Assembly (NCBI GenBank): GCA_045596865.1
Contig: JAZODF010000039.1
Coordinates: forward strand, 2,245-66,244
Direction: 5' to 3'
DNA: 64,000 nucleotides
DNA from: Eubacteriales bacterium
GTDB taxonomy: Bacteria > Bacillota > Clostridia > Oscillospirales > CAG-272
The notes below the pieces were generated by a model. That model ran no database searches. It worked only from the letters and a program-made list of their open reading frames with translations, and was not told the origin of the DNA. Position numbers and translations under genes: made by a program. The stretch's first letter is position 1. Every line of letters starts with the position of its first letter. Shown here one piece after another: positions 7,143 through 63,452 of the stretch.

Positions 7143-7253
7143 AGAGGTGTCGGTGTGCTCGCGGTATAGATCGACGGGTCGCGAACCGCATCGTTAATTG
7201 AGTGGCGAATACGTATTATCTAATGTATATAATGAATAATAAAGGAGCATTTT

Positions 7254-8258
7254 ATGAAAAGAATTATCTGCGCCTGCTTGGCGATAATTTCCCTGCTCTC
7301 CGTTTTTCCGCTTGTCGGATGCGCTCCGAGGCTACCCGAGGTTGAGTACACGCTCGCCGAGGATGCGACCTTCGTGAACGGGGGAGTCAAGTACGGCCTC
7401 TCGGACAAGGGACTTATCGCCCTTGAGGTGGTCGACAGGACGTTGACCGAGGTCCGGCTCTACGGCTACGTCAACGAGTACAACGTCGACGAGGCGACCG
7501 ACGCGTTTATGGCGGCGATTGATGCAAAGGCCGTACCGACCGACGAGGTCTACGCAATTGCAGGCGGCTTCCTTAACGACAACGACACGGTCGAATATCT
7601 CGTTTTGCCAAGCTCGCTCTCGCTCGGATTTTTCGAGGAGGGGTGCATCGTCGGGTGTGACAATCTCAAAAAGGTTAAGCTCCACAACGACATGCTCAAG
7701 GCGGATATCACACTCCGCACCGAGAAAAATGCGTTCTCCCTCGCAGATGATACCGTGTTCTCGGTCTGCAATCTTGAAAGGGTGGGTAAGTACGCCGTAA
7801 CCCTCGAGACCCTCGGCAAGCGTCTGGTATACGATCGTGACGTGTATTTCGTCATTTCGGCAGACGTTGATCACACCTATTTCGGTGCCGACACGGTGCT
7901 CGAATACGTCAGCGCCACCTACGAAATCACCGCGCGAATCATGGGCGGCAAGCGCCGTAAGATCTGGTTCTACCAGAGGGGCCCCGAGGATAAGTACATA
8001 GAGAAGATCGCCTCGGCGGGCGACACCGTAAAATACAGCTCCAAAAGAGAGAAGCTGAAAATCGAATATACCCTTGACGGCTGTGCGGATATTGAGGCGT
8101 GGGTTCTCAAAAATCACATGCCCTTCTCCTGCAAGGATGAGTATTCGACGAACAACACCTTCTTTTGTACCGAACGTAACTATCGCACGGATGACGTGTA
8201 CTTCGAGCTGGAGCTTGAGGGATATCTCACCTTCCAATCGGACGGTGACAGGGATTAA
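7254..8258 (+). CDS. Hypothetical lipoprotein
   Basis: 334 aa. Signal peptide with lipobox (SVFPLVGC). RBS AAAGGAG. No recognisable catalytic motif. Confidence 0.6.
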   Translation: MKRIICACLAIISLLSVFPLVGCAPRLPEVEYTLAEDATFVNGGVKYGLSDKGLIALEVVDRTLTEVRLYGYVNEYNVDEATDAFMAAIDAKAVPTDEVYAIAGGFLNDNDTVEYLVLPSSLSLGFFEEGCIVGCDNLKKVKLHNDMLKADITLRTEKNAFSLADDTVFSVCNLERVGKYAVTLETLGKRLVYDRDVYFVISADVDHTYFGADTVLEYVSATYEITARIMGGKRRKIWFYQRGPEDKYIEKIASAGDTVKYSSKREKLKIEYTLDGCADIEAWVLKNHMPFSCKDEYSTNNTFFCTERNYRTDDVYFELELEGYLTFQSDGDRD

Positions 8259-8371: not shown

Positions 8372-9442
8372 TTATTCGGGCAGGCGCTCGACCGTCAGCT
8401 CAAAGGTCTTGAAGTTGAGAATTACGTCGTAGGTGCCGACCTCGCGCAGGTAGTAAGTACTGCCCGAGACGTCAAGATTCTCGTCCTCTGTGGCGACAAA
8501 GACGATCTCGTCGTAGCTCTCGGTGTAGAAGGTCGGGATTCGGGTGTCCTTCTCGTCCGCGCTCATACGGTAGCGGATGACGTGCGGCGCCGCCTCGTCA
8601 TACGGGGTCAGGGTGATGAAGTCACCGTCCTCGTATATCTGGCAGGTGTACCGGATGGCGTCGGGTGAAACCGGCTCAATGCGCAGGGTGTAAGTCACCG
8701 AGTTCATATAGACGTTGTACCTGCCGCCGTAGTTGACCGACACGTTGGATTTGCTGAAATTACCGAAGAGGTCGGTTTTATCGTCGGCCGCGGCGAAGTG
8801 ATAAATGCTGACGTGGGTGCGATCGTGGAAGAACAGGTACTCGCCCGCGGGGATCTCGACGTCCGTGAGGCAATACTCGTCGGGGTTATCGGGATTCTTC
8901 GCCATCGGGTGATACTCGGATTTCATCCACATCTCACAGCTCGGCATGGTGTAGTAGCGAGGGGTGTCTATCTCGCGCTTGTAGACGAGGTCAAAGGTGT
9001 GCGCGTTCACGTCGAATTTGATGGTGTAGACGCCGCTTTTCACAATATTTATCTGGATATCGTAGCCGCTCTCCTTCTCCTCGGAGGCGTATTCGGTGTC
9101 GGTCGGGTCGCCGAGAGTGGCGTACAGGTCGCGCATATCCCCCGAAACGGCGTAGAAATAGTCACCCTCGTACAGGTAGATCTCGTCGTAGACGCGGTTG
9201 TCGCCCTCGAGCGAGAAGATCTTGTAGTTCATAAAGTAACCGTGGACGCTCATGGACAAAATGAGCTTATCCGAGGTGTAATACTCGGTATCGGGCGCGG
9301 GAGTGAAGTGGTCGACGGTCACGTCCTCGGGCAAAACCACGGTGATGTCGGAGTTGTAATCCCTATCGCCGCCCGCGAAATCACAGCCGACGAGCAGACA
9401 TATAAGCATAAGTGCGGCAAAAATCAGAGCAAGTCGTTTCAT
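8372..9442 (-). CDS. Hypothetical lipoprotein
   Basis: Start set to MKRLALIFAALMLICLLVGC (lipobox), preceded by GGAGG. About 356 aa and Tyr/Asp-rich. Confidence 0.6.
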   Translation of the reverse strand: MKRLALIFAALMLICLLVGCDFAGGDRDYNSDITVVLPEDVTVDHFTPAPDTEYYTSDKLILSMSVHGYFMNYKIFSLEGDNRVYDEIYLYEGDYFYAVSGDMRDLYATLGDPTDTEYASEEKESGYDIQINIVKSGVYTIKFDVNAHTFDLVYKREIDTPRYYTMPSCEMWMKSEYHPMAKNPDNPDEYCLTDVEIPAGEYLFFHDRTHVSIYHFAAADDKTDLFGNFSKSNVSVNYGGRYNVYMNSVTYTLRIEPVSPDAIRYTCQIYEDGDFITLTPYDEAAPHVIRYRMSADEKDTRIPTFYTESYDEIVFVATEDENLDVSGSTYYLREVGTYDVILNFKTFELTVERLPE

Positions 9443-11889: not shown

Positions 11890-11918
11890 ATTATACATTA
11901 TCCTTTTTGATTTTTCAA
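11890..11918 (-). promoter_or_regulatory. Putative pfkA promoter
   Basis: Minus strand TTGAAA-N17-TATAAT. Two direct copies of CCTTTTTGATTTTTC (11902-11916 and 11921-11935) overlap it. Confidence 0.45.
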
Positions 11919-12008
11919 TGCCTTTTTGATTTTTCGCAAACTTTTTCCGAAAGTAGTATTTCTCCCATATATTTTATGCGCGCCAAGCGCAAATACCCGT
12001 GCGACCGC

Positions 12009-12037
12009 TTGATTTGTTCATATCCGTGTGGTAAAAT
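12009..12037 (+). promoter_or_regulatory. Island-1 promoter, near-identical to the RHS promoter
   Basis: TTGATT-N17-(TGG)TAAAAT with extended -10. The 40-nt block 12009-12048 matches 43767-43806 at 37/40 positions. Confidence 0.6.
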
Positions 12038-12097
12038 ATAGGTGGAATTATTAAAACAAATATAACGATTCAATTTATTAAAAGACGTTTTAATGGA

Positions 12098-12355
12098 ATG
12101 GGGCAAACTATAGTGAGAAGACAAAAAGGTAATGAAGGCGAAGAATATATCAATGCCTTTCCAAAATTTAAAAAATGGATTAATGAATGTATGTGTTGTC
12201 ATGAAAAAGGATATAATCCATCAATGCCTGAAAAAATCACAACAGTTGACGGATCATTAGAGGTGTACTATATAAAAAAGTATTTTAAGCCTTTGTTGTT
12301 AAATAAAGATGGTTTGTGCCCACTATGTGAAAAACTACTGAACAAAAAACAGTAA
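12098..12355 (+). CDS. Small Cys-rich (zinc-ribbon-like) hypothetical protein
   Basis: 85 aa, AT-rich. Cys pattern CMCC...CPLC. No convincing RBS, so coding status is uncertain. Confidence 0.4.
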   Translation: MGQTIVRRQKGNEGEEYINAFPKFKKWINECMCCHEKGYNPSMPEKITTVDGSLEVYYIKKYFKPLLLNKDGLCPLCEKLLNKKQ

Positions 12356-12399
12356 ACGGGTTTTATTGATCGATTTGTTTAATTGAATGGGAGATTTCA

Positions 12400-12831
12400 A
12401 TGGATAAATTCATAGTTGATGACATGAAAAAGGAATCGAGAATGGGTTGCCCCCTTATGATAATAAGCTACATATTGGCGGTGTTGACGCTTGTGTATAA
12501 TTATCATACAAGAGAATACAGCAACAAAGAGATGTTAATTATTTTCCTCGTGTTTCTTTTCCTTGGAGCATACAGCATGTATGTATGGCTTTATGGTATT
12601 AATTACAGGGTTGAGTTTAACAACGAAAAAGTTTACTTAAGAACTCTGTTTAGACGAATAGAGCTCAGTATATGCGATGTTAAAAAATACACCTGTAAGA
12701 GGTATAAGAAAAGCGTTTTCTATCAATTCAATCTGATAACAAAAGATAGAAAGGTGTTGATTAACACCAGATACAAAGACGAGTTTGAAAAGGTGTTAAA
12801 AAATAACAACGTCGAGCAAGTAGCTAAATAA
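12400..12831 (+). CDS. Hypothetical 2-TM membrane protein with basic soluble C-terminal domain
   Basis: 143 aa. GGGAG RBS. Two hydrophobic helices, then a Lys/Arg-rich beta-type domain. Confidence 0.6.
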   Translation: MDKFIVDDMKKESRMGCPLMIISYILAVLTLVYNYHTREYSNKEMLIIFLVFLFLGAYSMYVWLYGINYRVEFNNEKVYLRTLFRRIELSICDVKKYTCKRYKKSVFYQFNLITKDRKVLINTRYKDEFEKVLKNNNVEQVAK

Positions 12832-12875
12832 CGTGGTGTGGTTTTAATGATAATGAGAGTAATAGAAAGGTTAAT

Positions 12876-13274
12876 ATGATAATCATTGCTCAAATAGCAT
12901 TTGTTGGTCTGTGCTTTACCTCAACAAGCTTTCTGCACTTATACAAATTTCCTACAGCCAATAAGATTATAACGATCGTAGGAATTATTATTAATTTCTG
13001 TGCCGTTGTATTAGAGCTTATATTTTGGGATTCCTTGATTTATCAGAAAAGTGTTTTAATAATAAGCGTATTACTTCTTACACTTATGTTTTGTATAGCT
13101 GAAATAGCCTGCAAGAAAAAGTACATAAATGTAATAGGAGATTACATCAAAGCAATCATGGAAACATCGTCACATAATCTCACAAACAGTGATATTCAAA
13201 AGCTCTTGCTAAAATCATATAACGAATATGCTTCTTTGAAGGATATAGAGAAAGCACGTCAACTCATACTTTGA
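12876..13274 (+). CDS. Hypothetical 3-TM membrane protein (holin-like topology)
   Basis: 132 aa. GAAAGG RBS. Three hydrophobic helices and an approximately 55-aa hydrophilic helical tail. Confidence 0.6.
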   Translation: MIIIAQIAFVGLCFTSTSFLHLYKFPTANKIITIVGIIINFCAVVLELIFWDSLIYQKSVLIISVLLLTLMFCIAEIACKKKYINVIGDYIKAIMETSSHNLTNSDIQKLLLKSYNEYASLKDIEKARQLIL

Positions 13275-13319
13275 AAACAGACTATTCATATTATAAATCG
13301 TTTTTTGCGAGGTAAGCCT

Positions 13320-13865
13320 ATGAAACTAAAGCTTAACGATGAACCAACAAAAAACATTATTTTGTTTTCTCTTGTAACGATTGCAACTGCGATTTTTACG
13401 ATTTTTCTTTTTACTATTCCGGGTGGTCCTGTAAAGTATAGTGAGAAAAATACATACGAGGTGAGAGGGATAGTAACAGATTTCGAATATGTTCCTCCTA
13501 CTTATTTTGGAGAAAAAATCAGGCATCCTCACATTATCCATTTAGATAACGGTACTGACTGCGTTTTTAATTATTATAATTACGAAATGTATTACAACGA
13601 TCCTGATCAATCAAAAATCAAGAATGAACTTGAAGGTCAATATGTTGTAATTCGATTGTCAAAAATAAATGACAGAGTCATTACTATAAACACGGATGAA
13701 AAATGCTACCTATCTTTTGAAGCAAGCAACAGACAGCATATTATTGGAATAATTGGAGTTGTGTTGCTTGATTTCTCTGTTTTGTTTTCTGCGTATGTGT
13801 TTTGGATAAACCCGATTATTAGTATCAAAAAATGGAAAAAGAAAAAACGGATAAAGAAAAAATAA
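13320..13865 (+). CDS. Hypothetical bitopic membrane protein (N- and C-terminal TM, poly-Lys tail)
   Basis: Start set to MKLKLND (GAGGT RBS 6 nt upstream). About 181 aa. TM, then an approximately 110-aa Tyr/Asn-rich domain, then TM, then KKWKKKKRIKKK. Confidence 0.6.
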   Translation: MKLKLNDEPTKNIILFSLVTIATAIFTIFLFTIPGGPVKYSEKNTYEVRGIVTDFEYVPPTYFGEKIRHPHIIHLDNGTDCVFNYYNYEMYYNDPDQSKIKNELEGQYVVIRLSKINDRVITINTDEKCYLSFEASNRQHIIGIIGVVLLDFSVLFSAYVFWINPIISIKKWKKKKRIKKK

Positions 13866-13889
13866 CTTGTAAATCAATTTATACTCTTT

Positions 13890-13921
13890 GCGAGCTCTCC
13901 TTCGGGAGGGCTCGCTTTTTG
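13890..13921 (+). terminator. Island-1 terminator, identical to the RHS-locus terminator
   Basis: GCGAGCTCTCC-TTCG-GGAGGGCTCGC then TTTTTG. 32/32 identical to 48728-48759. Confidence 0.8.
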
Positions 13922-14046
13922 CTTTGCGGGGGCTTGCGGGCGGCGGGGTGGCGCGTGCGCGTGTGCAGTAGTATCAAAATAAGGTTGTGGGGTTGGGTTT
14001 TTGGGAAATTTGGTGCCATTTTTTTAGGAAATTGCCGCCTTGGCGA

Positions 14047-15106: not shown

Positions 15107-16124
15107 CGAGCTTCGTGCGCGGCTGAAGGACGGGCGGCTTGGCGGCTGCTTCATCCTCGCGGGCGAGGAGGACTACCTCAAGAGGTATTACCTCACCAAG
15201 ATTCGCGAGGCGATCGTGACCGACGAGGCGTTTGCCACCTTCAATTACGCGGTCTATGATGGGGCGGAGGTCAATTTCGCCGCCATCCGTGACGACATAA
15301 CCTCGCCGCCGATGATGGCAGACGGCAAGCTCATCGAATGGCGGTACCCCAATTTTGACAAGATGAAGGAGGCGGACCTCGCCCTGTTTGAGGACACGGT
15401 GGCCCTGCTTTCCGAATATGAATACGCGACGCTCGTTTTCCTCGTGGCGGAGGACGGGCTGACCCTCGGCGTCGGCAAGCGCGAGTCAAAGCTCGAAAAG
15501 CGGCTCGCAAAATCGGCAAATCTCCTGAATTTCGGGATGCAGACCGACGCCGCGCTGATCTCCTGGCTCGGTAAGCATTTCGACGCGGAGGGAATCAAGG
15601 TCAGCGGGGCGGTGCTAAGCAGCCTGCTTTTCCGCGTCGGTCACTCGATGACCGTGCTGAACGAGGAGGTCACGAAGCTATGCGCGATGGCGAAGGCGCG
15701 CGGCAAGGCGGAGATAACCGAGGCGGATATCGTCGAGGTGTGCTCTTCGACGCCCGAGTGCGATACCTTTGCCCTGTCGAACGCGATCCTCGCGCGGGAC
15801 AAGAGAATGGCGCTCGCCGCGCTTGACGAGATGAAGTCGCGCAGGGTCGACCCAATGATGATCCTCGGCATGATTTCAAAGACCTACTCCGAGCTTCTCG
15901 AGGTCATTTCGATGCTCGCGGACGGTATGGGCTCCGCGGATATACAGGCGGCGACGGGCATGAACGCATATCGACTGAAGCATTATATTAACGCCGCACC
16001 GAAATTCAGCCCGCAAAGGGCGCTAAACATCCTCTCCGAGCTGCAAAGAGTTGACACGGGGTCGAAGTTTGGCGGAGTTACGGGCTACACCGCGCTCGAG
16101 CTGTTTATCACCAAGTGCGTGTAA
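15096..16124 (+). CDS. holA: DNA polymerase III subunit delta
   Basis: 342 aa. N-terminal FILAGEEDYLKRYY-type motif, with length and helical C-terminal domain typical of HolA. Confidence 0.85.
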   Translation: MEINELRARLKDGRLGGCFILAGEEDYLKRYYLTKIREAIVTDEAFATFNYAVYDGAEVNFAAIRDDITSPPMMADGKLIEWRYPNFDKMKEADLALFEDTVALLSEYEYATLVFLVAEDGLTLGVGKRESKLEKRLAKSANLLNFGMQTDAALISWLGKHFDAEGIKVSGAVLSSLLFRVGHSMTVLNEEVTKLCAMAKARGKAEITEADIVEVCSSTPECDTFALSNAILARDKRMALAALDEMKSRRVDPMMILGMISKTYSELLEVISMLADGMGSADIQAATGMNAYRLKHYINAAPKFSPQRALNILSELQRVDTGSKFGGVTGYTALELFITKCV

Positions 16125-21035: not shown

Positions 21036-22103
21036 ATGAAAAGGATAAGTGCGGTATTGCTCGTGATAACGATCGCCATGTCCCTGCTCGTGGGATGTAA
21101 CGACAAGGGCGGAGAGCAAAAATACGATACCAAAACGCGACAGGTGTCGCTCGTATATTTCAACACCGTGTCGATCATATCCTCCTACGGTGACACGACG
21201 GATGCCGAGATGGACGCATACGCCGCCGCGGCGGACGATCTGCTCGGATATTACCACCACCTGTTCGATATCTACTTTGAATACGCGGGGATAAGCAATC
21301 TTCGCACCGTGAACAAGAACGCGGGAAAGGCACCCGTCAAGGTCGACGCGGAGCTAATCGACTTCCTCGAGGAATGTAAAGAATTGTTTACGCTGACAAA
21401 TGGCAAGACCAACGTTATGATGGGGGCCGTGTTAAGAATTTGGCACAATTACCGCGAGGACGGTATGGATGATCCGAGTGCGGCAAAGGTGCCGAGCACC
21501 GAGGAATTGACCGCCGCGGCGGAGCATACGGACATCGACTCGCTCATCATTGACCGCGAGGCGGGCACGGTGTATATTTCCGACCCCGAGGCGTCGATCG
21601 ACGTCGGCGCGATCGGCAAGGGATATGCGACCGAGCGGCTTTACGAGCGGCTCTGCGAGATGGGCGCCGACTCGATGGCGCTGAATATTGGCGGCAACCT
21701 TCGCACCATTGGCGTGATGCCGAGCGGCGACAATTGGCGCACGGGGATTACCAACCCCGACCGCACGAACCCGAATTTCGCCGCGAGAATATCCTTCGGC
21801 GAGACCTCCTGCGTCACCTCGGGCGACTACGAGCGGTATTACGTCGCGGGGGGTGAGAAATATCACCATATCATCGACCCCGTGACCCTCTTCCCCGCCG
21901 ATTATTTCTCCTCCATCACGGTCATCACGCCGAATAGCGCGATGGCGGACGCGCTCTCGACCGCGCTGTTTTGCCTGCCACTTGAGGACGGGCAGAGCAT
22001 GCTTGCCTCCATCCGTGCCGCGGGTATCACCGTCGAGGCGCTGTGGATAGACGGGGAGGGTAAAATCACCGCAACCGACGGCATCGTGAGATTGCCGGAT
22101 TGA
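21036..22103 (+). CDS. apbE: FAD:protein FMN transferase, lipoprotein
   Basis: Lipobox LLVGC. AIGKGYA and HHIIDP motifs. Confidence 0.9.
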   Translation: MKRISAVLLVITIAMSLLVGCNDKGGEQKYDTKTRQVSLVYFNTVSIISSYGDTTDAEMDAYAAAADDLLGYYHHLFDIYFEYAGISNLRTVNKNAGKAPVKVDAELIDFLEECKELFTLTNGKTNVMMGAVLRIWHNYREDGMDDPSAAKVPSTEELTAAAEHTDIDSLIIDREAGTVYISDPEASIDVGAIGKGYATERLYERLCEMGADSMALNIGGNLRTIGVMPSGDNWRTGITNPDRTNPNFAARISFGETSCVTSGDYERYYVAGGEKYHHIIDPVTLFPADYFSSITVITPNSAMADALSTALFCLPLEDGQSMLASIRAAGITVEALWIDGEGKITATDGIVRLPD

Positions 22104-22261
22104 CGGCAATGCGACCACCCGTGTCGTGAGATTGCCGGATTGACGGCAATGCGACCGACCGCAACGCAACCCCGAACGCATCGTGAGATTGCCGGATTGA
22201 CGGCAACGCGTCCGACCGCAACGCAACCCCGACCGACCGCATCGTGAGATTGCCGGATTGA
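22084..22261 (+). repeat. Four tandem copies of the apbE 3' end with hairpin
   Basis: TCGTGAGATTGCCGGATTGACGGCAA(T/C)GCG starts at 22084, 22124, 22181 and 22242. Each full copy contains the hairpin ATTGCCG-GATTGA-CGGCAAT. Confidence 0.85.
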
Positions 22262-31241: not shown

Positions 31242-31317
31242 GCTGCTATGGCTCAGCTGGTAGAGCACATCCTTGGTAAGGATGAGGTCCCCGGTCCGAA
31301 TCCGGGTAGCAGCTCCA
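31242..31317 (+). tRNA. tRNA-Thr (anticodon GGU)
   Basis: Manual cloverleaf: acceptor GCTGCTA/TAGCAGC, D arm GCTC-AGCTGGTA-GAGC, anticodon stem CATCC/GGATG with loop TTGGTAA, T arm CCCGG-TCCGAAT-CCGGG, and an encoded CCA. Confidence 0.9.
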
Positions 31318-35975: not shown

Positions 35976-36205
35976 GCAAACGAAACGCCCTCCAATACGG
36001 AGGGCGCATAGTGATTCACACGGGGAAAACGGGCATAGCACGCCCATTGATCGCCGCGGGTATCATCTTCCTCCGTTTGCCCAAGGAATATATACACTCT
36101 CCACGGCAGGCCTTCCGACTTTGACGGCAATGGCTGTTGCGACGGGTTTTCACCGCACTTTCCCTGCTTGAGGCGGCCTGCCTTGCGGCGCGCCACCTAT
36201 CGTGG
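35976..36205 (-). promoter_or_regulatory. Cobalamin riboswitch with terminator expression platform
   Basis: Minus strand reads GGCAGGCC...AGGGAAAGTGCGGTGAAAACCCG...B12 box AGTCGGAAGGCCTGCC (GGCAGGCC pairs with GGCCTGCC), then terminator CGCCCTCC-GTATT-GGAGGGCG-TTTCGTTT. Confidence 0.75.
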
Positions 36206-37986: not shown

Positions 37987-38270
37987 CGCGCAAAATATGC
38001 CAAAATGCGACACGGGGTCGGGCTTACGCGGGTTTTTGCACGGCTTCGCGGGTGCCCGCGAGGTGCGGTGGGACACACAATCCGCCGTTATCACACCGCG
38101 TCGCGACGCAAAATACGTCAAAACGCGACACAGGGTCGGACTTACACGGTTTTTCGGCACAAGGCCACCGGATGGGTCGGACTTACGCGGTATTACGACA
38201 CAAGGTCACCGGATGGGTCGGACTTACGCGGTATTCCGGCACAAGGTCACCTGATGGGTCGGACCGCGTC
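37987..38270 (+). repeat. Cluster of GGGTCGGACTTAC-containing repeats, including 41-bp tandem units
   Basis: Paralogous approximately 56-nt units at 37987-38042 and 38102-38160. 41-bp tandem units start at 38161, 38202 and 38243 (the last is partial). Confidence 0.8.
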
Positions 38271-43589: not shown

Positions 43590-43655
43590 TGTTATATAAT
43601 ATTTCATATATTTTCCTGCACGTGTTATATAATATTTCATATATTTTCCTACACG
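43590..43655 (+). repeat. Two tandem copies of an AT-rich 33-bp unit
   Basis: TGTTATATAATATTTCATATATTTTCCT(G/A)CACG at 43590-43622 and 43623-43655. Confidence 0.85.
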
Positions 43656-43766: not shown

Positions 43767-43795
43767 TTGATTTGTTCATATCTATATGGTAAAAT
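43767..43795 (+). promoter_or_regulatory. RHS-cassette promoter
   Basis: TTGATT-N17-(TGG)TAAAAT, with AAAGGAGAA RBS and ATG 39 nt downstream of the -10. Paralogous to 12009-12037. Confidence 0.6.
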
Positions 43796-43833
43796 ATAGG
43801 TGGAATCAATAAAAACAAAAAAGGAGAAACGAA

Positions 43834-46800
43834 ATGGCTTATGTGAAAAATTTCAATCCAGGACAGATTTTGCTTGACCTTCCGAGTGCTAACCACATTT
43901 ATGAGCTGCCACTATTGTCGTTTGGCGACGTTAACGGAAGCGTTGGAATTTCGGTTATTTATAACCGCCAGTTTGCCGCTATGGGCGATCAGCGCTTCGG
44001 TTTTTACATGGGCTACAAGCTGAATTTGCAGAAAAAGATTCTGTTTAGCGACAATAGCTCGGGTAATTACATCGACGCCAACGGAAAAACGATTCCCTTT
44101 TGGAGAACAGAAGGAGTTTATCTTTTTGAGGACGAGGGCACTCGCGTAATGGTTCCTATCGGAACATCATACAAGGTATTCTACCCGGATAATAGCTATG
44201 AAATATTCGATCAATCCGGAAGAATCACGCTAATGTACGATAAATACGGGCATATTTTGGCAAGCTTAACGTACGGTAGCAACGGACTTTTAACATCCAT
44301 AACCATTAAGAACAAGCACGTTGTTTCCGTATCGAACAATGCTGCCAATATGATTTCCTCGATCTCACACAATGGCTTATCTATTGGATTTGTTCACCCT
44401 GCCGGTCCGCTTAACGTTTCGCATTATTCGGGGGTATCGTACTCGATCGTGCCCACAAGCGGATATGGCTTGACCGCCACCGCCACGGGGACAGAAAACT
44501 CGGTATCCGTTTCGCATTCGGTTCGCTTGACGCTCTCGGGAACGAATGTACGCTCGTCATACTTGATCAATAACAACGAGATCGATTATCAAATCTATTC
44601 CTTCCCCGATGAGGTTAATTGTCAGACACTGTATAACCAAGTTGAAATAACGGACAAAAACGGCGTAAAAACGAGAACGCAGTATCAAGGAAAGCACCCA
44701 ACCTATTCGTACGAGGTGACCGGTAATGATGACGTAGCCTTCGTGGATAACAAATACGGCGGTGCGGTAACTTTACATAGGCAATATTTAACGACCGAGG
44801 ACGGAAAGCCTAAAGGAATACAGCGGCTCAAAGATGGAGCCGCGATGTTGATTGCTGGTTCCAAAGAGTGGTTTTACGATATAACCGAGTATTCCTCGGT
44901 TATGGCAAACGGCTACTTCGTTTTGTCGGGATGGATCAATGCTCAAACCGAGTGTGACGATCCGGAAAACGTAGTTATGCAGCTCGACACAAGCACGGGT
45001 CCGACTTATTTTAGCATCGACGCCACCCCCTGCAACACTTGGAGATATTTCGCTCATACCTTCAAGACAAGCACCGCATTTGTTCGGATTCGCATTGACT
45101 CTAACAAAGCAGATTTAAGAGATTTAAGAATCACGTTCCAAGAAACCGGCAAGATCAATAACGGTGATTCATCCCATCTCACGCTCACGTCAGACGTGTT
45201 GTATTGCCGCAGAGCGAACACCGCCTCGTATGATAAAGTCCCCTTGTCTGAAGCAACCTTCAGTCACGGAGCGTTTAGTGTTCCGAACGAGTATGAACCA
45301 AACGCGAAGGTATATTACAACGACATCCTGAGATATAAGAAAAACCAAGCGGCGGGTGTTAATACAAATCATTTTTATTACAACAACGGTGAGTGTGTTT
45401 ACATATTGTCCTCTGCTTCGGATTCCTACATCACGGTTGAATACAACGGTGTTTCCTATAATCTGCACGATGCGTTTCTTGGGAATGAGGTATTCCGTCA
45501 CGGACACGGAAACGTCATCACTCAGATCAACAACACGACCGTGGCGATCGGGTCGCAAACCCAACGCCGTTTGGTAATACAAACCAAGAAAGCTACCGGC
45601 GAGCTGATTTCTTCACAGACGCTGGATAACAAACTCGACGTCATATCCGTAACAAATGAAGGGGTCACAACGACCTACGAAAGAACGAACGGCCTTATTA
45701 CGTCCGAGAGTGTTTCGGATTCGAGCGGACAGATTTTGTTCACTCGCACTATGTCATACGGTACGGATTCGGGCGGTAACGACGTCGTGACGTTGGTGGA
45801 CGAGTTTGGAAAAAGCACAGTCATTACGCTAGATTCAAACCACGGTGTCGAGCTATCTCTTACCGCCCCGGATAATAGTATAACCTCGAACGAATACGAC
45901 AGCGATTACTGCGCGCTGACCAAGCGCACGTTCTCCGGCTCCGCGCCTCGCTCCAATCAGCTTGCTTATTTTGCAGGCAATCTTCAAGGTGTTAATACGG
46001 GCTCTTTAGGCTACGAGTTCGAATACACCGACGGAAAGTTATCTAAGGTCGAAAAATCCGACGCCCCCGTAGAACAGCACGTAAATACCGATACCTCTAC
46101 GACAAGTCACTACCCATCGTCGCAGTCACCGCTTTATTCGGAGATAACAAACTTTGATAAATACGGCAGACCCATTTTGATAGAAAACCAAGCCGCATTT
46201 ACCTACAGCGTATTTCCCAACTATAACAGTTCCGGCGAAATGACGTCCAACATAAACAACGCAAGCTCCGTTCCGGCAACCGTTATCGACCATGTCGCGA
46301 ATGAAACGACGAGGTATTCGTATAACACCTCGGGCAAGGTGATTTCCGCGCTCGTAGCAGCCACGGATGATTATTCGGACAAAAAACGGGTCAGCGGCTG
46401 CGTCTACGATGCTATCGGACGCCTTTCCATGCAAAATTTCGCGTATGGCACAGGCACGAACGATATGGTTTTCGAGCAAATCGGATATAGAAAGGCGGAA
46501 ACAGACCCGACGGCAAACAACGTCATTCAATCTTATTCATATTATCACATTGAACACTCATCCGGTATTCCCGTCGCAAGCTCGCAAAATACGTTCGATT
46601 CCTTCAACCGTATTTCGGAAAGGTCAATCAGCTTGGGTAATGCCGTCTTTACAAAGCAGTTCAACTATAACAAAACTTGGTTGAGCAGCGAGTACCTTTG
46701 CCTAAATGATTCGTTATCCGAAACAATCTATTACAGTCGTGACGATATGGGCAGGCTCGCCTCCACATTGATAAGCAATCCTAATTCAGCGTATCACACC

Positions 46801-48324
46801 TCATACGCCTACGATTCGTTCGGTCAGCTCGTCCGCGAGAATAATCAACGGCTTGGTAAAACCTTTACGTACTCCTACGACACCCTCGGAAATATTACGA
46901 GCGTGGATGAATACGCCTACACCACGTCAAGCACGCTCGGCACGAGAACCTCGCAAAAGAGCTTCGTATATCAGGCGGATAGGTTAACAAATGCAAACGG
47001 ACAAAGCATCGGATACGACACCCTCGGGCGTCCAACCACCGTCGGTACGCTAAGTTATCAATGGTCGAGGAACAAGCTCTCGGGAGTCACCCGTGGCTCG
47101 TTGTCGCAGTACGGGGCGCTATATCATAATATCACCTTTGATTACAACGGTTTGGGTCAGCGCACGGGAAAGCATTATCAGTATGATACGACCGTTGGAA
47201 GCACTAACGATTTGTCCTATACGTACGATACCGAGTACAACTACGATGACGCGGGTAGGCTGATGCGCGAGGTTTGCACCGAGCATTATATGCACGGCGC
47301 AACGACCGTTTACGAGCTTATTTACCTCTATAACGAGTCGGGTATGATCGGCGTACGCCTGAGCGTTAACGGTGGGGCATTTACCGACTATTACTACCGC
47401 AGAAATGCTCTCGGCGACGTGATTGCTATTTATAACACAAGCTACACGCGCGTGGTTGAGTATGCCTACGACGCGTGGGGCAATTGCACGACCCTTATCG
47501 GCAGTACGACCGCAATAGGACAGATAAATCCCATCCTATACAGAGGATACTACCGCGATAGGGAAACGGGGCTATATTTCTGCAATTCGAGGTATTATGA
47601 CCCTAGCTGGCGTAGGTTTATCTCGCCCGACGATACTGCGTATCTTGATCCCGAAAACGTCAACGGTCTGAACTTGTATGCATACTGTGGTAATGATCCT
47701 GTAAATTATGTCGATCCGAGTGGTTGTAGTTCTAACTCTTTATGGAAGACTATTTTTGGGGTGGCTATTGGGGTTGGATTAGCCGCTTTGGCTATTGGTG
47801 CAACCATACTTACGGGTGGTTCCTTTGCGGCAATAGGTATTGGTTTCGTATTAGGAGCTACAGCTAGTTTTGTTGGACAGGGTGTTGGAAATGTCCTTAG
47901 TGGCGAGAACTTCTTTGATGGAATAAGCATTGGTTCCATAATTATGGGAGGATTGGCAGGAGCTGCATTCGCCACCGGTGTAGGAGGTTTATGGGGTGCA
48001 GTTGCTATCGGAGCAGCCTCTAACGCTGGAACTTCTGCTTTGGAAAATAAGAGTTGGGCAAATATTGCAGGAAGTGCGGTAGTTGGAGGAATCGCAGCAG
48101 GTATTGGATATGGAGTCGGAAAGTTTGCCTCCAACCATATTTATAAAAACACAGGGATGACATTTAATGACTTCTATAATTTGGGGATAGTTGATACGAA
48201 TCCAGTTATGGCCGCATTCTATGCCCTTGGAGCGTCTTGGTACACGTTTTTGCCAAATATTGCTACATCATCCTCGAGAGGATTAATCAAATTTCTAGGC
48301 AATAAAGGAATTGGGTGGTTTTAA
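43834..48324 (+). CDS. RHS/YD-repeat polymorphic toxin with glycine-zipper transmembrane C-terminal domain
   Basis: 1496 aa. Many YD repeats (e.g. YDKYGHILASLTYGSNG, YSYDTLGNITSV, YNYDDAGRLMRE). RHS core (YYYRRNALGDVIAIY...YAYDAWGN...YRGYYRDRETGLYFCNSRYYDPSWRRFISPD...YAYCGNDPVNYVDPSG). A 199-aa Gly/Ala-rich hydrophobic tail follows. Confidence 0.9.
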   Translation: MAYVKNFNPGQILLDLPSANHIYELPLLSFGDVNGSVGISVIYNRQFAAMGDQRFGFYMGYKLNLQKKILFSDNSSGNYIDANGKTIPFWRTEGVYLFEDEGTRVMVPIGTSYKVFYPDNSYEIFDQSGRITLMYDKYGHILASLTYGSNGLLTSITIKNKHVVSVSNNAANMISSISHNGLSIGFVHPAGPLNVSHYSGVSYSIVPTSGYGLTATATGTENSVSVSHSVRLTLSGTNVRSSYLINNNEIDYQIYSFPDEVNCQTLYNQVEITDKNGVKTRTQYQGKHPTYSYEVTGNDDVAFVDNKYGGAVTLHRQYLTTEDGKPKGIQRLKDGAAMLIAGSKEWFYDITEYSSVMANGYFVLSGWINAQTECDDPENVVMQLDTSTGPTYFSIDATPCNTWRYFAHTFKTSTAFVRIRIDSNKADLRDLRITFQETGKINNGDSSHLTLTSDVLYCRRANTASYDKVPLSEATFSHGAFSVPNEYEPNAKVYYNDILRYKKNQAAGVNTNHFYYNNGECVYILSSASDSYITVEYNGVSYNLHDAFLGNEVFRHGHGNVITQINNTTVAIGSQTQRRLVIQTKKATGELISSQTLDNKLDVISVTNEGVTTTYERTNGLITSESVSDSSGQILFTRTMSYGTDSGGNDVVTLVDEFGKSTVITLDSNHGVELSLTAPDNSITSNEYDSDYCALTKRTFSGSAPRSNQLAYFAGNLQGVNTGSLGYEFEYTDGKLSKVEKSDAPVEQHVNTDTSTTSHYPSSQSPLYSEITNFDKYGRPILIENQAAFTYSVFPNYNSSGEMTSNINNASSVPATVIDHVANETTRYSYNTSGKVISALVAATDDYSDKKRVSGCVYDAIGRLSMQNFAYGTGTNDMVFEQIGYRKAETDPTANNVIQSYSYYHIEHSSGIPVASSQNTFDSFNRISERSISLGNAVFTKQFNYNKTWLSSEYLCLNDSLSETIYYSRDDMGRLASTLISNPNSAYHTSYAYDSFGQLVRENNQRLGKTFTYSYDTLGNITSVDEYAYTTSSTLGTRTSQKSFVYQADRLTNANGQSIGYDTLGRPTTVGTLSYQWSRNKLSGVTRGSLSQYGALYHNITFDYNGLGQRTGKHYQYDTTVGSTNDLSYTYDTEYNYDDAGRLMREVCTEHYMHGATTVYELIYLYNESGMIGVRLSVNGGAFTDYYYRRNALGDVIAIYNTSYTRVVEYAYDAWGNCTTLIGSTTAIGQINPILYRGYYRDRETGLYFCNSRYYDPSWRRFISPDDTAYLDPENVNGLNLYAYCGNDPVNYVDPSGCSSNSLWKTIFGVAIGVGLAALAIGATILTGGSFAAIGIGFVLGATASFVGQGVGNVLSGENFFDGISIGSIIMGGLAGAAFATGVGGLWGAVAIGAASNAGTSALENKSWANIAGSAVVGGIAAGIGYGVGKFASNHIYKNTGMTFNDFYNLGIVDTNPVMAAFYALGASWYTFLPNIATSSSRGLIKFLGNKGIGWF

Positions 48325-48662
48325 TGAAAATGAGAGCAATAGAAATAGCAAACGGTTTTTTGTTGGTTTCATTAACAAGTGTAGATGTGATGTTAATTGT
48401 TAAATTCGGTTTAGCTAACGACGGTTGGCTTCTCATTGCACTTGCATTGATTTTCTTTATTATTTATATTGGTGGAAGACTTTCTCCTCGTTTTGCAGTG
48501 ACTTTGATACATAAACTATCAAAGAGAATGTATAGAGATTCAGACAACATTTCAGTACCGACATTGGAGGAAGCAAAGGAAACCTTTAAGAGCAGATTGC
48601 CTTATTTGTTGGTGATCGTTAATATTCTTATGCTGTTATTGATACTCACATTTTTGTTATAA
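48324..48662 (+). CDS. Putative cognate immunity protein (3-TM membrane protein)
   Basis: ATG overlaps the RHS TAA (TAATG). About 112 aa, AT-rich, two N-terminal TMs plus one C-terminal TM. An alternative GTG start is at 48315. Confidence 0.6.
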   Translation: MKMRAIEIANGFLLVSLTSVDVMLIVKFGLANDGWLLIALALIFFIIYIGGRLSPRFAVTLIHKLSKRMYRDSDNISVPTLEEAKETFKSRLPYLLVIVNILMLLLILTFLL

Positions 48663-48727
48663 CGTTCGCGTCATATAAGAAGTTTGGATTTACGGATCAA
48701 GAATAACTACATCAATTTATACCCATC

Positions 48728-48759
48728 GCGAGCTCTCCTTCGGGAGGGCTCGCTTTTTG
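48728..48759 (+). terminator. RHS-locus terminator
   Basis: GCGAGCTCTCC-TTCG-GGAGGGCTCGC then TTTTTG. Identical to 13890-13921. Confidence 0.8.
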
Positions 48760-48864
48760 TTTTTTCGAAAACGATGTAATTTTTCCCAAAAATATGGACA
48801 AACGGCGCGGGATGTGGTATAGTTAGGCTATACCAAAGGTATAGACACCGAAAGGAGAAACACT

Positions 48865-62090: not shown

Positions 62091-62633
62091 CTACCTGCCA
62101 AACTCAAATATTGTTTTCGTTTCCTTTCCGTCGGATACGGTTAATCTTGATCTGTATTTAAATAACGCGGGGCGCTCATAGGTGTAAACGTAATCGCCGA
62201 GTATGTACTTGTAACCGCCAAAAGTAGATTTCCAACCGTCCATCTTTCCGCTTTCCTTAACCAACCTAACCGCCGCGGCATCTAAATCACATTTGTTACC
62301 GTTTCTATCATAGCAATAGGCGGTTTGGGTTAATCCAACATATACATACAGAAACTCACCAAAATACAACAAAGCGCCATACCCTTGGCCTTCAGCAAAC
62401 AACCTTTTAGAAAAAAGCTCCTCGCCCTCATTTGAATACGCATTCACCCTCAAATAAGCAACAGTTGAGGTTTTTTCAAAGTAGCAAATTGCCACGTCAC
62501 CGTTGGTTCGGTTCAAGGTCATATTAGATGGCGCGGTTACGTTTCTCATTGGAACCGCCGCGAATAAAACCACCAACAATCCAACTATTAAAATAATTGC
62601 TATTATTTTCTTGACGTTCACGTTTACACTCAC
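62091..62633 (-). CDS. Hypothetical membrane-anchored protein (lower-GC gene)
   Basis: About 176-180 aa. N-terminal TM, Tyr/Gly-rich beta-type ectodomain. Start ambiguous (GTG at 62633 or 62621). Confidence 0.5.
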   Translation of the reverse strand: MSVNVNVKKIIAIILIVGLLVVLFAAVPMRNVTAPSNMTLNRTNGDVAICYFEKTSTVAYLRVNAYSNEGEELFSKRLFAEGQGYGALLYFGEFLYVYVGLTQTAYCYDRNGNKCDLDAAAVRLVKESGKMDGWKSTFGGYKYILGDYVYTYERPALFKYRSRLTVSDGKETKTIFEFGR

Positions 62634-62909: not shown

Positions 62910-63452
62910 ATGCTAATGTTCCTTGCGCTGATCGATGAGGGGCGGCAGGACGATTTTATCAAGATATACACGCGCTACAAGTCGCTCGCAACCAAGACCG
63001 CGGGATATTACCTCAGCAACCGATACGACGTCGAGGAGATCGTACAGACCGCGTTTTTCAGGATTTCACAATGCCTTGACAGGCTGGACACCGACAACCC
63101 GCGCAGGGTCGCAAATTTCGTCATCACGGTGACGCGGAATTGCTGTTACGACCTTTTAAGAAAGCAGAGGCGTTCGCCGAAGACCGTGACGATCGACTCG
63201 GTCGAGCTTTTGCCCGACGAGGAGGACGCGTACGAGAGGCTGATCGACAGGGAAACCTACGCCGAGGTCGTCAAATACATATTGAAAATGCCCGAGAAAT
63301 ACAGGTTCGTTTTATACCTTTACTACGCCTGTGACCTTTCGATAACGGCGATTGCCGTAGCGCTGAATATCAGCAGGAGCACCGCACACGGCAGGCTGAC
63401 GAAGGGGATCGAGATGATAAAGAGGCGGATCGGAGGGGTGGATAATGGATAA
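62910..63452 (+). CDS. ECF-type RNA polymerase sigma-70 factor
   Basis: 180 aa. Region 2 (EEIVQTAFFRISQCLDRL...TRNCCYDLLRK) and region 4 HTH (LSITAIAVALNISRSTAHGRLTKG). Confidence 0.85.
   Translation: MLMFLALIDEGRQDDFIKIYTRYKSLATKTAGYYLSNRYDVEEIVQTAFFRISQCLDRLDTDNPRRVANFVITVTRNCCYDLLRKQRRSPKTVTIDSVELLPDEEDAYERLIDRETYAEVVKYILKMPEKYRFVLYLYYACDLSITAIAVALNISRSTAHGRLTKGIEMIKRRIGGVDNG

Follow-up and report, generated by a model that had tools for sequence, protein, structure and literature searches.

Why should a short, AT-rich group of genes be framed by the same promoter and terminator as an RHS toxin gene elsewhere on the chromosome? The question is raised by a stretch of 64,000 nucleotides (nt), here called the window, from contig JAZODF010000039.1 of an Eubacteriales bacterium (assembly GCA_045596865.1). 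In it, an island of four small genes at positions 12009-13925 sits between pfkA and an mgsA-like gene, with the sole rhs gene of the window about 30 kb away. The initial annotation took the island and the RHS locus for a single two-locus system and offered three hypotheses: an orphan array of immunity proteins against membrane-targeting RHS cargos, a release or accessory module for the RHS protein, or shared ends acting as recombination handles. The evidence below indicates that 12009-13925 is probably a toxin-free polyimmunity operon, that is, a set of orphan RHS immunity genes derived from RHS toxin-immunity modules. The island consists of the following features.

12009-12056, plus strand: promoter block P1, with the -35 element TTGATT (12009-12014), a 17-nt spacer, TG at 12029-12030, the -10 element TAAAAT (12032-12037) and about 20 nt of common 5' leader
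12066-12113, plus strand: toxin-tail relic before open reading frame (ORF) 1, RFNLLKDVLMEWGKL-stop, whose stop codon overlaps GTG 12113 by 1 nt; matches the end (...LLEEILKKWGKL-stop) of the 88-residue toxin tip in contig L024
12098-12355, plus strand: ORF1, a Cys-rich soluble protein of 85 residues from ATG 12098 or 80 residues from GTG 12113; predicted immunity protein
12360-12386, plus strand: toxin-tail relic before ORF2, VLLIDLFN-stop, 13 nt before ORF2; matches VILLIDIFN-stop (L009) and IIFIIDLFN-stop (L014), which lie 14 nt before ORF2 homologues
12400-12831, plus strand: ORF2, 143 residues, two predicted transmembrane (TM) helices and a PH-like beta-sandwich; predicted immunity protein
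12838-12868, plus strand: stub of the RHS-immunity gene, made up of the last toxin codons (W, F, stop) and the first 10 or so immunity codons; the W-F-stop relic matches the end of the window RHS
12876-13274, plus strand: ORF3, 132 residues, about three TM segments and a helical tail; predicted immunity protein
13280-13315, plus strand: toxin-tail relic before ORF4, DYSYYKSFFAR-stop, 4 nt before ORF4; matches VYKAYYKLFFMR-stop in L022, 4 nt before an ORF4 homologue
13320-13865, plus strand: ORF4, 181 residues, with N- and C-terminal TM helices predicted around a beta-rich domain; predicted immunity protein
13870-13925, plus strand: terminator block T1, with a hairpin at 13890-13915 (11 bp, UUCG loop) and a U-tract

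The RHS locus to which the island is compared contains the following.

43767-43814, plus strand: promoter block P2 of the RHS operon, matching P1
43834-48324, plus strand: RHS toxin gene, 1,496 residues, with the RHS core at residues 1212-1297 and a glycine-rich C-terminal domain of about 200 residues
48315-48662 (alternative start 48324), plus strand: immunity gene for a membrane protein of 112 to 115 residues, assigned by position to the C-terminal toxin of the RHS protein
48692-48763, plus strand: ORF4-tail-like remnant (48692-48706) followed by terminator block T2 (48708-48763, hairpin at 48728-48753)

The signals described in the initial annotation hold up in pattern searches of the 64-kb window. 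The 40-nt block at 12009-12048 matches 43767-43806 at 37 of 40 positions, its three differences (C/T, G/A and G/A) are transitions in the spacer, and the likeness extends to 48 nt at 90% identity (12009-12056 and 43767-43814). It reads TTGATT, 17 nt, TAAAAT, and the TG expected of an extended -10 promoter was flagged by the promoter scan. As claimed, the 32 nt of the terminator at 13890-13921 and those at 48728-48759 do not differ at any position; the predicted fold is a hairpin with 11 bp in its stem and UUCG as its loop, followed by a U-tract (-22.6 kcal/mol, z -5.5). Homology there reaches 56 nt at 91% (13870-13925 and 48708-48763); the extension lies upstream of the 32 nt and runs weakly into the last codons of ORF4. 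The promoter block has only two matches in the window, a number reached in 0 of 100 shuffles, and the same figures hold for the terminator. A third common block, absent from the initial annotation, relates 12838-12868 to 48315-48345 (31 nt, 94%) and represents the junction of the RHS gene end with the start of the downstream immunity gene. In addition, the 15 nt at 48692-48706, next to the terminator of the RHS locus, resemble the tail of ORF4, which suggests that this locus once ended with an ORF4-type gene. Such a remnant ties the two loci by descent and not by convergence on generic signals.

Further copies of these blocks are found in relatives, where they occur only around arrays of the island kind; their payloads are listed below. 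The terminator is less exclusive than the promoter in one respect: its 25-nt hairpin core, in a scan of genome collections, matched two Planctomycetota metagenome-assembled genomes (MAGs) only, both apparently unrelated. The hairpin alone is thus not unique, which lends something to the view that the two elements are signals in general use across the genome, or copies of a dispersed repeat, and occur at both loci by coincidence. However, each block occurs just at these two loci in the 64 kb, the promoter pattern has no match in the GTDB genomes, JGI metagenomes and viral contigs scanned, and the terminator blocks have none in the JGI metagenome and viral collections. The likeness also passes beyond the functional elements into the leader and the ORF4-tail remnant, and the third block links the loci from inside an immunity gene. 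A coincidence of generic signals is therefore very unlikely.

The RHS locus itself (43767-48763) has the make-up of an RHS toxin-immunity operon: YD/RHS repeats, a core, a variable C-terminal domain and a small downstream gene. The RHS protein matches the PF05593 and TIGR01643 repeats, with the TIGR03696 core at residues 1212-1297, and the downstream gene overlaps the RHS stop codon, the usual position of a cognate immunity gene. A 33-nt tandem duplication (TGTTATATAATATTTCATATATTTTCCT[G/A]CACG, 96%) is found at 43590-43655, with the RHS promoter block on one side and the start of the divergent MFS transporter gene on the other.

What marks the island genes as former toxin partners is the DNA between them. 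The intergenic regions before ORF1, ORF2 and ORF4 still encode the last 8 to 15 codons of a toxin, without core sequence, and the spacing from relic to immunity start is equal to, or within 1 nt of, that in the matching toxin-immunity pairs. The L024 toxin tip overlaps its ORF1 homologue in the same manner as the relic overlaps ORF1, and nucleotide homology to L024 begins at 12075. By this homology, ORF1 probably starts at GTG 12113 and has 80 residues. Relics of the same kind are found in the arrays of relatives.

L001, before the 138-residue gene: 26 codons; the end of a 217-residue fragment in L009 agrees at 24 of 27 positions, counting the stop
L001, before ORF3: FLGNL-stop, matching the L029 tail
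L028, before the first array gene: a 64-codon open tail joined directly to the promoter leader, with no partner identified

Judging by these relics, the genes came into the arrays together with their toxins, which were deleted afterwards. Neither strand of 12009-13925 has a toxin-like ORF.

The pairing is seen intact elsewhere. The initial annotation looked to co-occurrence with RHS loci, and homologues of ORF1, ORF2 and ORF4 are indeed located directly after RHS toxin C-termini. At 90% clustering, ORF2 has 170 relatives or more, and its homologues in the eight contexts examined all lie 14 nt after either a full-length RHS of 1,628 residues or a 257-residue orphan RHS C-terminal fragment, which runs from within the core (MVGQRYYSPELGRFIQ...NLYSYANNNPI) to a Gly/Ser-rich domain at its end. 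ORF4 has 28 relatives; one homologue (81% identical) is found 4 nt after an RHS C-terminus, in a protein whose core is closely like that of the window RHS, or after a 196-residue orphan fragment starting VNYSDPSG. The L001 homologue of ORF1 (95% identical) belongs to a 90%-identity cluster of 126 sequences, and the L024 homologue (79% identical) overlaps the stop codon of the 88-residue toxin tip, which is not glycine-rich, in an orphan array behind an RHS of 2,004 residues. The 138-residue protein of L001 has a 61%-identical homologue after the 217-residue orphan fragment in L009. As an immunity protein, ORF3 is the weakest of the four. Its five relatives, in all the cases examined, are found in small AT-rich arrays: in L029, 13 nt after a 68-residue Gly/Ala-rich toxin-tail remnant that is itself preceded by a YD-repeat relic, and in L033, in an array that also holds an orphan TNT-type toxin fragment. 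Two homologues come from MAGs named "Clostridia bacterium" (P0025 and P0147), and one is from a MAG labelled Staphylococcus sp. (P0054).

Two of these homologous regions have peculiarities of their own. In the island of L029, located at an mfd site, the sequence (T/A)TGACAAAACCTTCATTTAC(G/A)TCTATAATGAAATTGGAAA occurs twice (7650-7700 and 8447-8490) and can be read both as a perfect promoter, TTGACA-17 nt-TATAAT, and as YD-repeat-like codons (FTYVYNEIGN), suggesting that part of an rhs reading frame acts as a promoter or has been co-opted as one. Contigs L009 to L014, from a low-GC (about 28%) gut bacterium, carry tandem units 3' of an RHS gene (e.g., L009 3100-15382 and L010 2210-15382), each consisting of an RHS-core fragment with toxin, an immunity gene and the gene of a large serine recombinase. 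The same immunity gene follows the full 1,628-residue RHS in some samples and a recombinase gene plus the 257-residue orphan fragment in others; the breakpoint is sharp, at nt 7191, within the codons of the conserved core motif YYDVETGLAMVGQRYY, and one sample is missing one unit entirely. The pattern resembles a site-specific process that inserts toxin-immunity cassettes into the rhs core, or exchanges them there, and a literature search found no paper combining such cassettes with recombinase-linked exchange of this kind.

The composition of the island is that of a foreign segment. Its GC fraction is 0.30-0.35 against about 0.57 in the flanks, in agreement with the AT-richness first reported. 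The contigs with full toxins and ORF1- or ORF2-type partners have 27-29% GC throughout and L022 has 35%, as compared to 32% for the island and about 57% for the host, a pattern compatible with transfer from low-GC toxin producers. Housekeeping genes surround both the island and the RHS locus (pfkA, mgsA-like, DUF1934, holA, an MFS transporter gene, a heparinase-like gene, truB, addA, rnf genes and the IMPDH gene), and neither recombinase nor secretion genes are present in the surveyed flanks of the two. Scans for Rfam families, tRNAs and tandem repeats leave the island without RNA genes; two short low-complexity repeats are found at its edges, 11902-11946 and 13827-13863, the latter within the ORF4 tail.

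The history of the island can be followed in relatives, here metagenome and MAG contigs that were reached by exact-sequence look-up and whose core genes are 84-92% identical to those of the window. P1-type blocks are found upstream of the RHS gene, of the L028 array and of a third module in L003, L004 and L006. In L028, pfkA is followed by the promoter block (97% identical to P2) and then by the first array genes. The L001 array runs, by protein length in residues, 164, 163, 138, ORF1, ORF2, 114, 102, ORF3 and 182, and is followed by the terminator hairpin and by mgsA, DUF1934 and holA. The pfkA site thus has four genes in the window and nine in the L001/L028 type, with ORF1 to ORF3 in common and the rest different. 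The 114-residue gene of L001 is an intact copy of the immunity gene next to the window RHS (96% nucleotide identity to 48315-48665), and in all five contigs read, the exact 114-residue protein has an array context. Compared to L001, the window is missing 854 nt, which comprise most of this immunity gene and the 102-residue gene; the 31-nt stub is what is left, and the deletion junction falls at a 9-nt microhomology, (T/C)AATAGAAA. By this alignment, the window island would be a shorter version of an L001-type array. The cassettes are 96-97% identical between the window and L001, and the adjacent core DNA is 88% identical. That the AT-rich cassettes are more alike between relatives (96-97%) than the flanking core genes (84-92%) points to their horizontal acquisition and exchange.

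The proposal of an orphan immunity array, the first hypothesis of the initial annotation, is thus borne out by the positions of homologues, the relics and the presence of the RHS immunity gene in the arrays of relatives. Its other half, that the cargos target the membrane, is not indicated for all four genes: ORF1 is soluble, and the toxin tip before its homologue is not glycine-rich.

The third module consists of ORF4 and the terminator block (94% nucleotide identity), located in L003, L004 and L006 between an LRR_5 gene and a glycosyltransferase (GT2) gene; L003 comes from the same sample as L001. A different gene, encoding a 160-residue protein with two TM helices, precedes ORF4 in this module, behind the same promoter block (90%). 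Modules are accordingly found at three chromosomal sites (pfkA/mgsA, MFS/heparinase-like and LRR_5/GT2) with different payloads and the same ends, and in all three types the homology sets in right at the -35 hexamer and goes no further than the U-tract. No target duplications, inverted repeats or recombinase or transposase genes are found at the module boundaries of the three sites. A distant lineage with about 52% GC (L017 and L018) has common ends of its own, TTGACA-17 nt-TGTGGTAAAAT and the hairpin GCGAGCCTACCTTCGGGTAGGCTCG, which in L017 corresponds to the window terminator with compensatory stem changes. Its AT-rich immunity islands (L017 6942-8836 and L018 7594-9202) occupy two different housekeeping sites and have in common about 320 nt at the 5' end (the promoter and the start of a gene for a 189-residue protein) and the 3' terminator, with different inner content; the first gene of the L018 island is cut short and joined to a toxin-tail relic.

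It is on this evidence that the third hypothesis rests, in which the conserved 48-nt and 56-nt ends are recombination handles, or element ends, that swap payloads between loci and species; this would be compatible with the immunity reading. The sharp limits of homology, the three payloads bounded by the same ends at three sites, the repetition of this logic in L017 and L018 with compensatory terminator changes, and cassettes that are more conserved than their core flanks are all in its favor. However, the three sites lack recombinases, transposases, target-site duplications and terminal inverted repeats, and the promoter and terminator at the pfkA site lie in syntenic DNA, at an identity like that of the flanks (88-92%), and look vertically inherited. 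The observed changes in content are explained by internal microhomology deletion and not by exchange through the ends, and stretches of 48 to 56 nt are short for efficient homologous recombination. Recombination handles are therefore rather unlikely. Also unlikely is the wider proposition that the promoter-to-terminator units constitute an undescribed recombinase-free cassette platform in gut Clostridia, a fixed expression frame copied to new sites, with payloads exchanged through its ends within and between species. If true, such a platform would be an integron-like store of interbacterial immunity genes.

All four ORFs of the initial annotation are present, with two corrections: ORF1 is probably the 80-residue product of GTG 12113, and ORF4 might not be bitopic, as a low-confidence model has N- and C-terminal helices flanking a beta-rich domain. 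The searches for immunity or holin families gave no match above threshold: neither ORF1 to ORF4 nor the RHS-adjacent immunity protein have significant similarity to anything in Pfam, NCBIfam, PHROGs, PADLOC or PDB sequence searches. Because ORF1 to ORF4 stay below threshold for every Pfam and NCBIfam family, these families are new. The AlphaFold2 model of ORF2, built from a 30-sequence alignment, has a pLDDT of 78 and shows two TM helices, a six-strand sandwich and a C-terminal helix; its matches are weak ones to PH domains (E about 3e-3), which bear on the fold and not on the function. The ORF4 model (pLDDT 58) was too poor for a structure search. Both are families of conserved proteins, with 26 invariant columns among 30 ORF2 relatives and 38 among 23 ORF4 relatives. 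Several array proteins have a common architecture of two TM helices and a small beta domain, without detectable sequence relationship. A single superfamily of such proteins (ORF2, the 138- and 182-residue proteins of L001 and the 158-residue protein of L004, which is the homologue of the 160-residue protein of L003) was considered and rejected, given 11-23% identity in MAFFT alignments and hhalign probabilities below 1%.

Three of the four being small membrane proteins expressed, it would seem, from a promoter common to both loci, they could be holin-like release factors, or aid the export of the signal-less RHS protein under joint regulation with it, as the second hypothesis of the initial annotation had it. 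The RHS-adjacent immunity protein even has a sub-threshold match to a holin family (E 0.006, 16.6 bits versus a cut-off of 25.4). No island protein, however, significantly matches a holin, phage, secretion or defence family; homologues pair one-to-one, in the immunity position, with different toxin C-termini; the content of the island differs between close relatives; and the relics mark its genes as former toxin partners. An accessory or release module is thus highly improbable.

Another idea is that the island is a decaying, non-functional remnant of an RHS locus, in which the ORFs persist only because the deletion is recent. Deletions and gene stubs are frequent in these arrays, as this idea would have it, but the four ORFs are intact, with 91-99% protein identity to the copies in other samples and no frameshifts. 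The promoter and terminator, too, are intact and conserved across species-level divergence, and the deletions consistently remove toxins and keep the immunity genes with their upstream translation signals. Decay is therefore quite unlikely.

From the sequence relationships, gene positions and relics described above, we infer transcription as one unit, immunity activity and an order of evolutionary events. The unit would comprise one strong sigma-A-type extended -10 promoter, four co-oriented small genes and one strong intrinsic terminator; the four genes lie on the plus strand, 44 to 45 nt apart, with a single promoter-like site upstream and a single terminator downstream. Each gene would have been captured as a unit of toxin tail plus immunity gene, and its toxin deleted. 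The island and the RHS locus have the same promoter and terminator because both apparently derive from one module type, made up of promoter, rhs, immunity gene or genes, and terminator; in the island, the rhs gene would have been lost and the immunity genes alone would remain. The content of the array would then turn over by gain and by microhomology deletions. The predicted function is constitutive co-expression of immunity proteins against RHS toxins delivered by other cells, not against the bacterium's own RHS, for whose immunity gene the island holds only the 31-nt stub. The two loci would thus be relatives by descent with common expression signals and not two halves of one machine; a single two-locus system is an overstatement, as the island has no immunity gene for this RHS and there is no sign of functional dependence.

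Several points weigh against the polyimmunity operon. ORF3, with its five relatives, has been seen after a tail remnant only and never after an intact toxin. The cognate toxin domains have no Pfam match, and the TNT domain is found only in one unrelated orphan. The genome may hold other copies of the promoter and terminator, or RHS toxins matching ORF1 to ORF4, in which case these genes would not be orphans. Finally, this reading gives no reason for the placement of modules with matching ends at three sites on the chromosome.

Polyimmunity operons have precedents. Heterogeneous polyimmunity loci consist of tandem immunity genes in the same orientation, uninterrupted by toxin genes and separated by short gaps that suggest one polycistronic message (Zhang et al. 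2012, Biol Direct 7:18, PMC3482391). Their content differs between close strains, loci of at least four genes are termed "extended," they have been reported in Firmicutes, and pre-emptive protection against the toxins of non-kin has been proposed as their role (PMC3482391). The island resembles them in its tandem immunity genes (identified as such by position), the absence of toxins, the common orientation with short gaps, and a content that varies between relatives. In contrast to these loci, its four proteins fall outside the described immunity families in Pfam and NCBIfam (Imm1-Imm7x, SUKH, SuFu and others), which is not a strict requirement of the locus definition; it has no adjacent recombinase, keeps short toxin relics, and has its promoter and terminator in common with a bona fide RHS operon.

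Acquired interbacterial defense (AID) clusters of gut Bacteroidales are orphan immunity arrays of foreign composition that are horizontally acquired, reside on mobile elements and are thought to protect these Gram-negative bacteria against type VI secretion system effectors of other strains or species (Ross et al. 2019, 10.1101/471110). The island is similar in being a horizontally acquired orphan immunity array of foreign composition in a gut bacterium, and different in being directed, by prediction, against RHS toxins of Clostridia-like bacteria and in lying between housekeeping genes with no mobility genes in the surveyed flanks. The mobile elements of AID clusters reportedly include integrative elements or recombinase-associated arrays.

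Rhs and contact-dependent growth inhibition (CDI) systems have orphan modules in which displaced C-terminal toxin fragments and immunity genes gather downstream of rhs genes, with AT-rich tips beside a GC-richer core and rearrangement by recombination (Poole et al. 2011, PMC3150448; Koskiniemi et al. 2014, PMC3967940). As described there, classical Rhs orphans keep a toxin fragment with some core, directly behind the main rhs gene, whereas the island retains only 8 to 15 codons per toxin, has no rhs gene at its site, and comes with its own promoter. True orphan modules, with the toxin fragment kept, are seen in L010, L014, L020 and L024, and not in the window.

The window contains several further repeats and features. 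Behind a tRNA-Thr(GGT) gene (31242-31317) and up to 31859, a unit of 291 nt is present in 1.9 copies (91-98% identity), and every copy opens with a hairpin like that of a terminator, CCCCGAGGGAATCCCCTCGGGG. A family of GC-rich intergenic repeats resembling repetitive extragenic palindromic (REP) sequences, with the core GACACGGGGTCGG[A/G]CTTA..., forms a 41-nt tandem array of 3.2 copies at 38133-38264 and has single dispersed copies near 16054, 36303, 38010, 41954, 51326 and 57467. Upstream of an rnfC-like gene, 22068-22261 holds a 57-nt tandem repeat (2.3 copies, 92%) with TCGTGAGATTGCCGGATTGACGGCAA. The palindromic AT-rich motif ATGTAAAT-n4-ATTTACA is present at six intergenic sites (1682, 4622, 16137, 41069, 53397 and 58354) and is possibly a regulator binding site. 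An AdoCbl-II (cobalamin) riboswitch at 36100-36177 on the minus strand is barely at the Rfam gathering score (36.9 versus 36.5 bits). At 62091-62633 (minus strand) and 62910-63452 (plus strand), a moderately AT-rich ORF of 180 residues, with an N-terminal TM segment and no Pfam match, is divergent from the gene of an ECF-type sigma factor.

The island does not reveal a new kind of system; it belongs to a known kind of locus, and it is the protein families that are undescribed. If the proposed origin is correct, it provides a worked example of how immunity-only islands might arise from RHS toxin operons in uncultured gut bacteria of the Gram-positive type: all but the last few codons of the toxin are deleted, the operon keeps its promoter and terminator along with the immunity gene, and the cassettes are shared among species. 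It would also assign a testable function to four unannotated protein families, one of them with at least 170 relatives at 90% clustering, and name their probable toxin partners, themselves uncharacterized RHS C-terminal domains.

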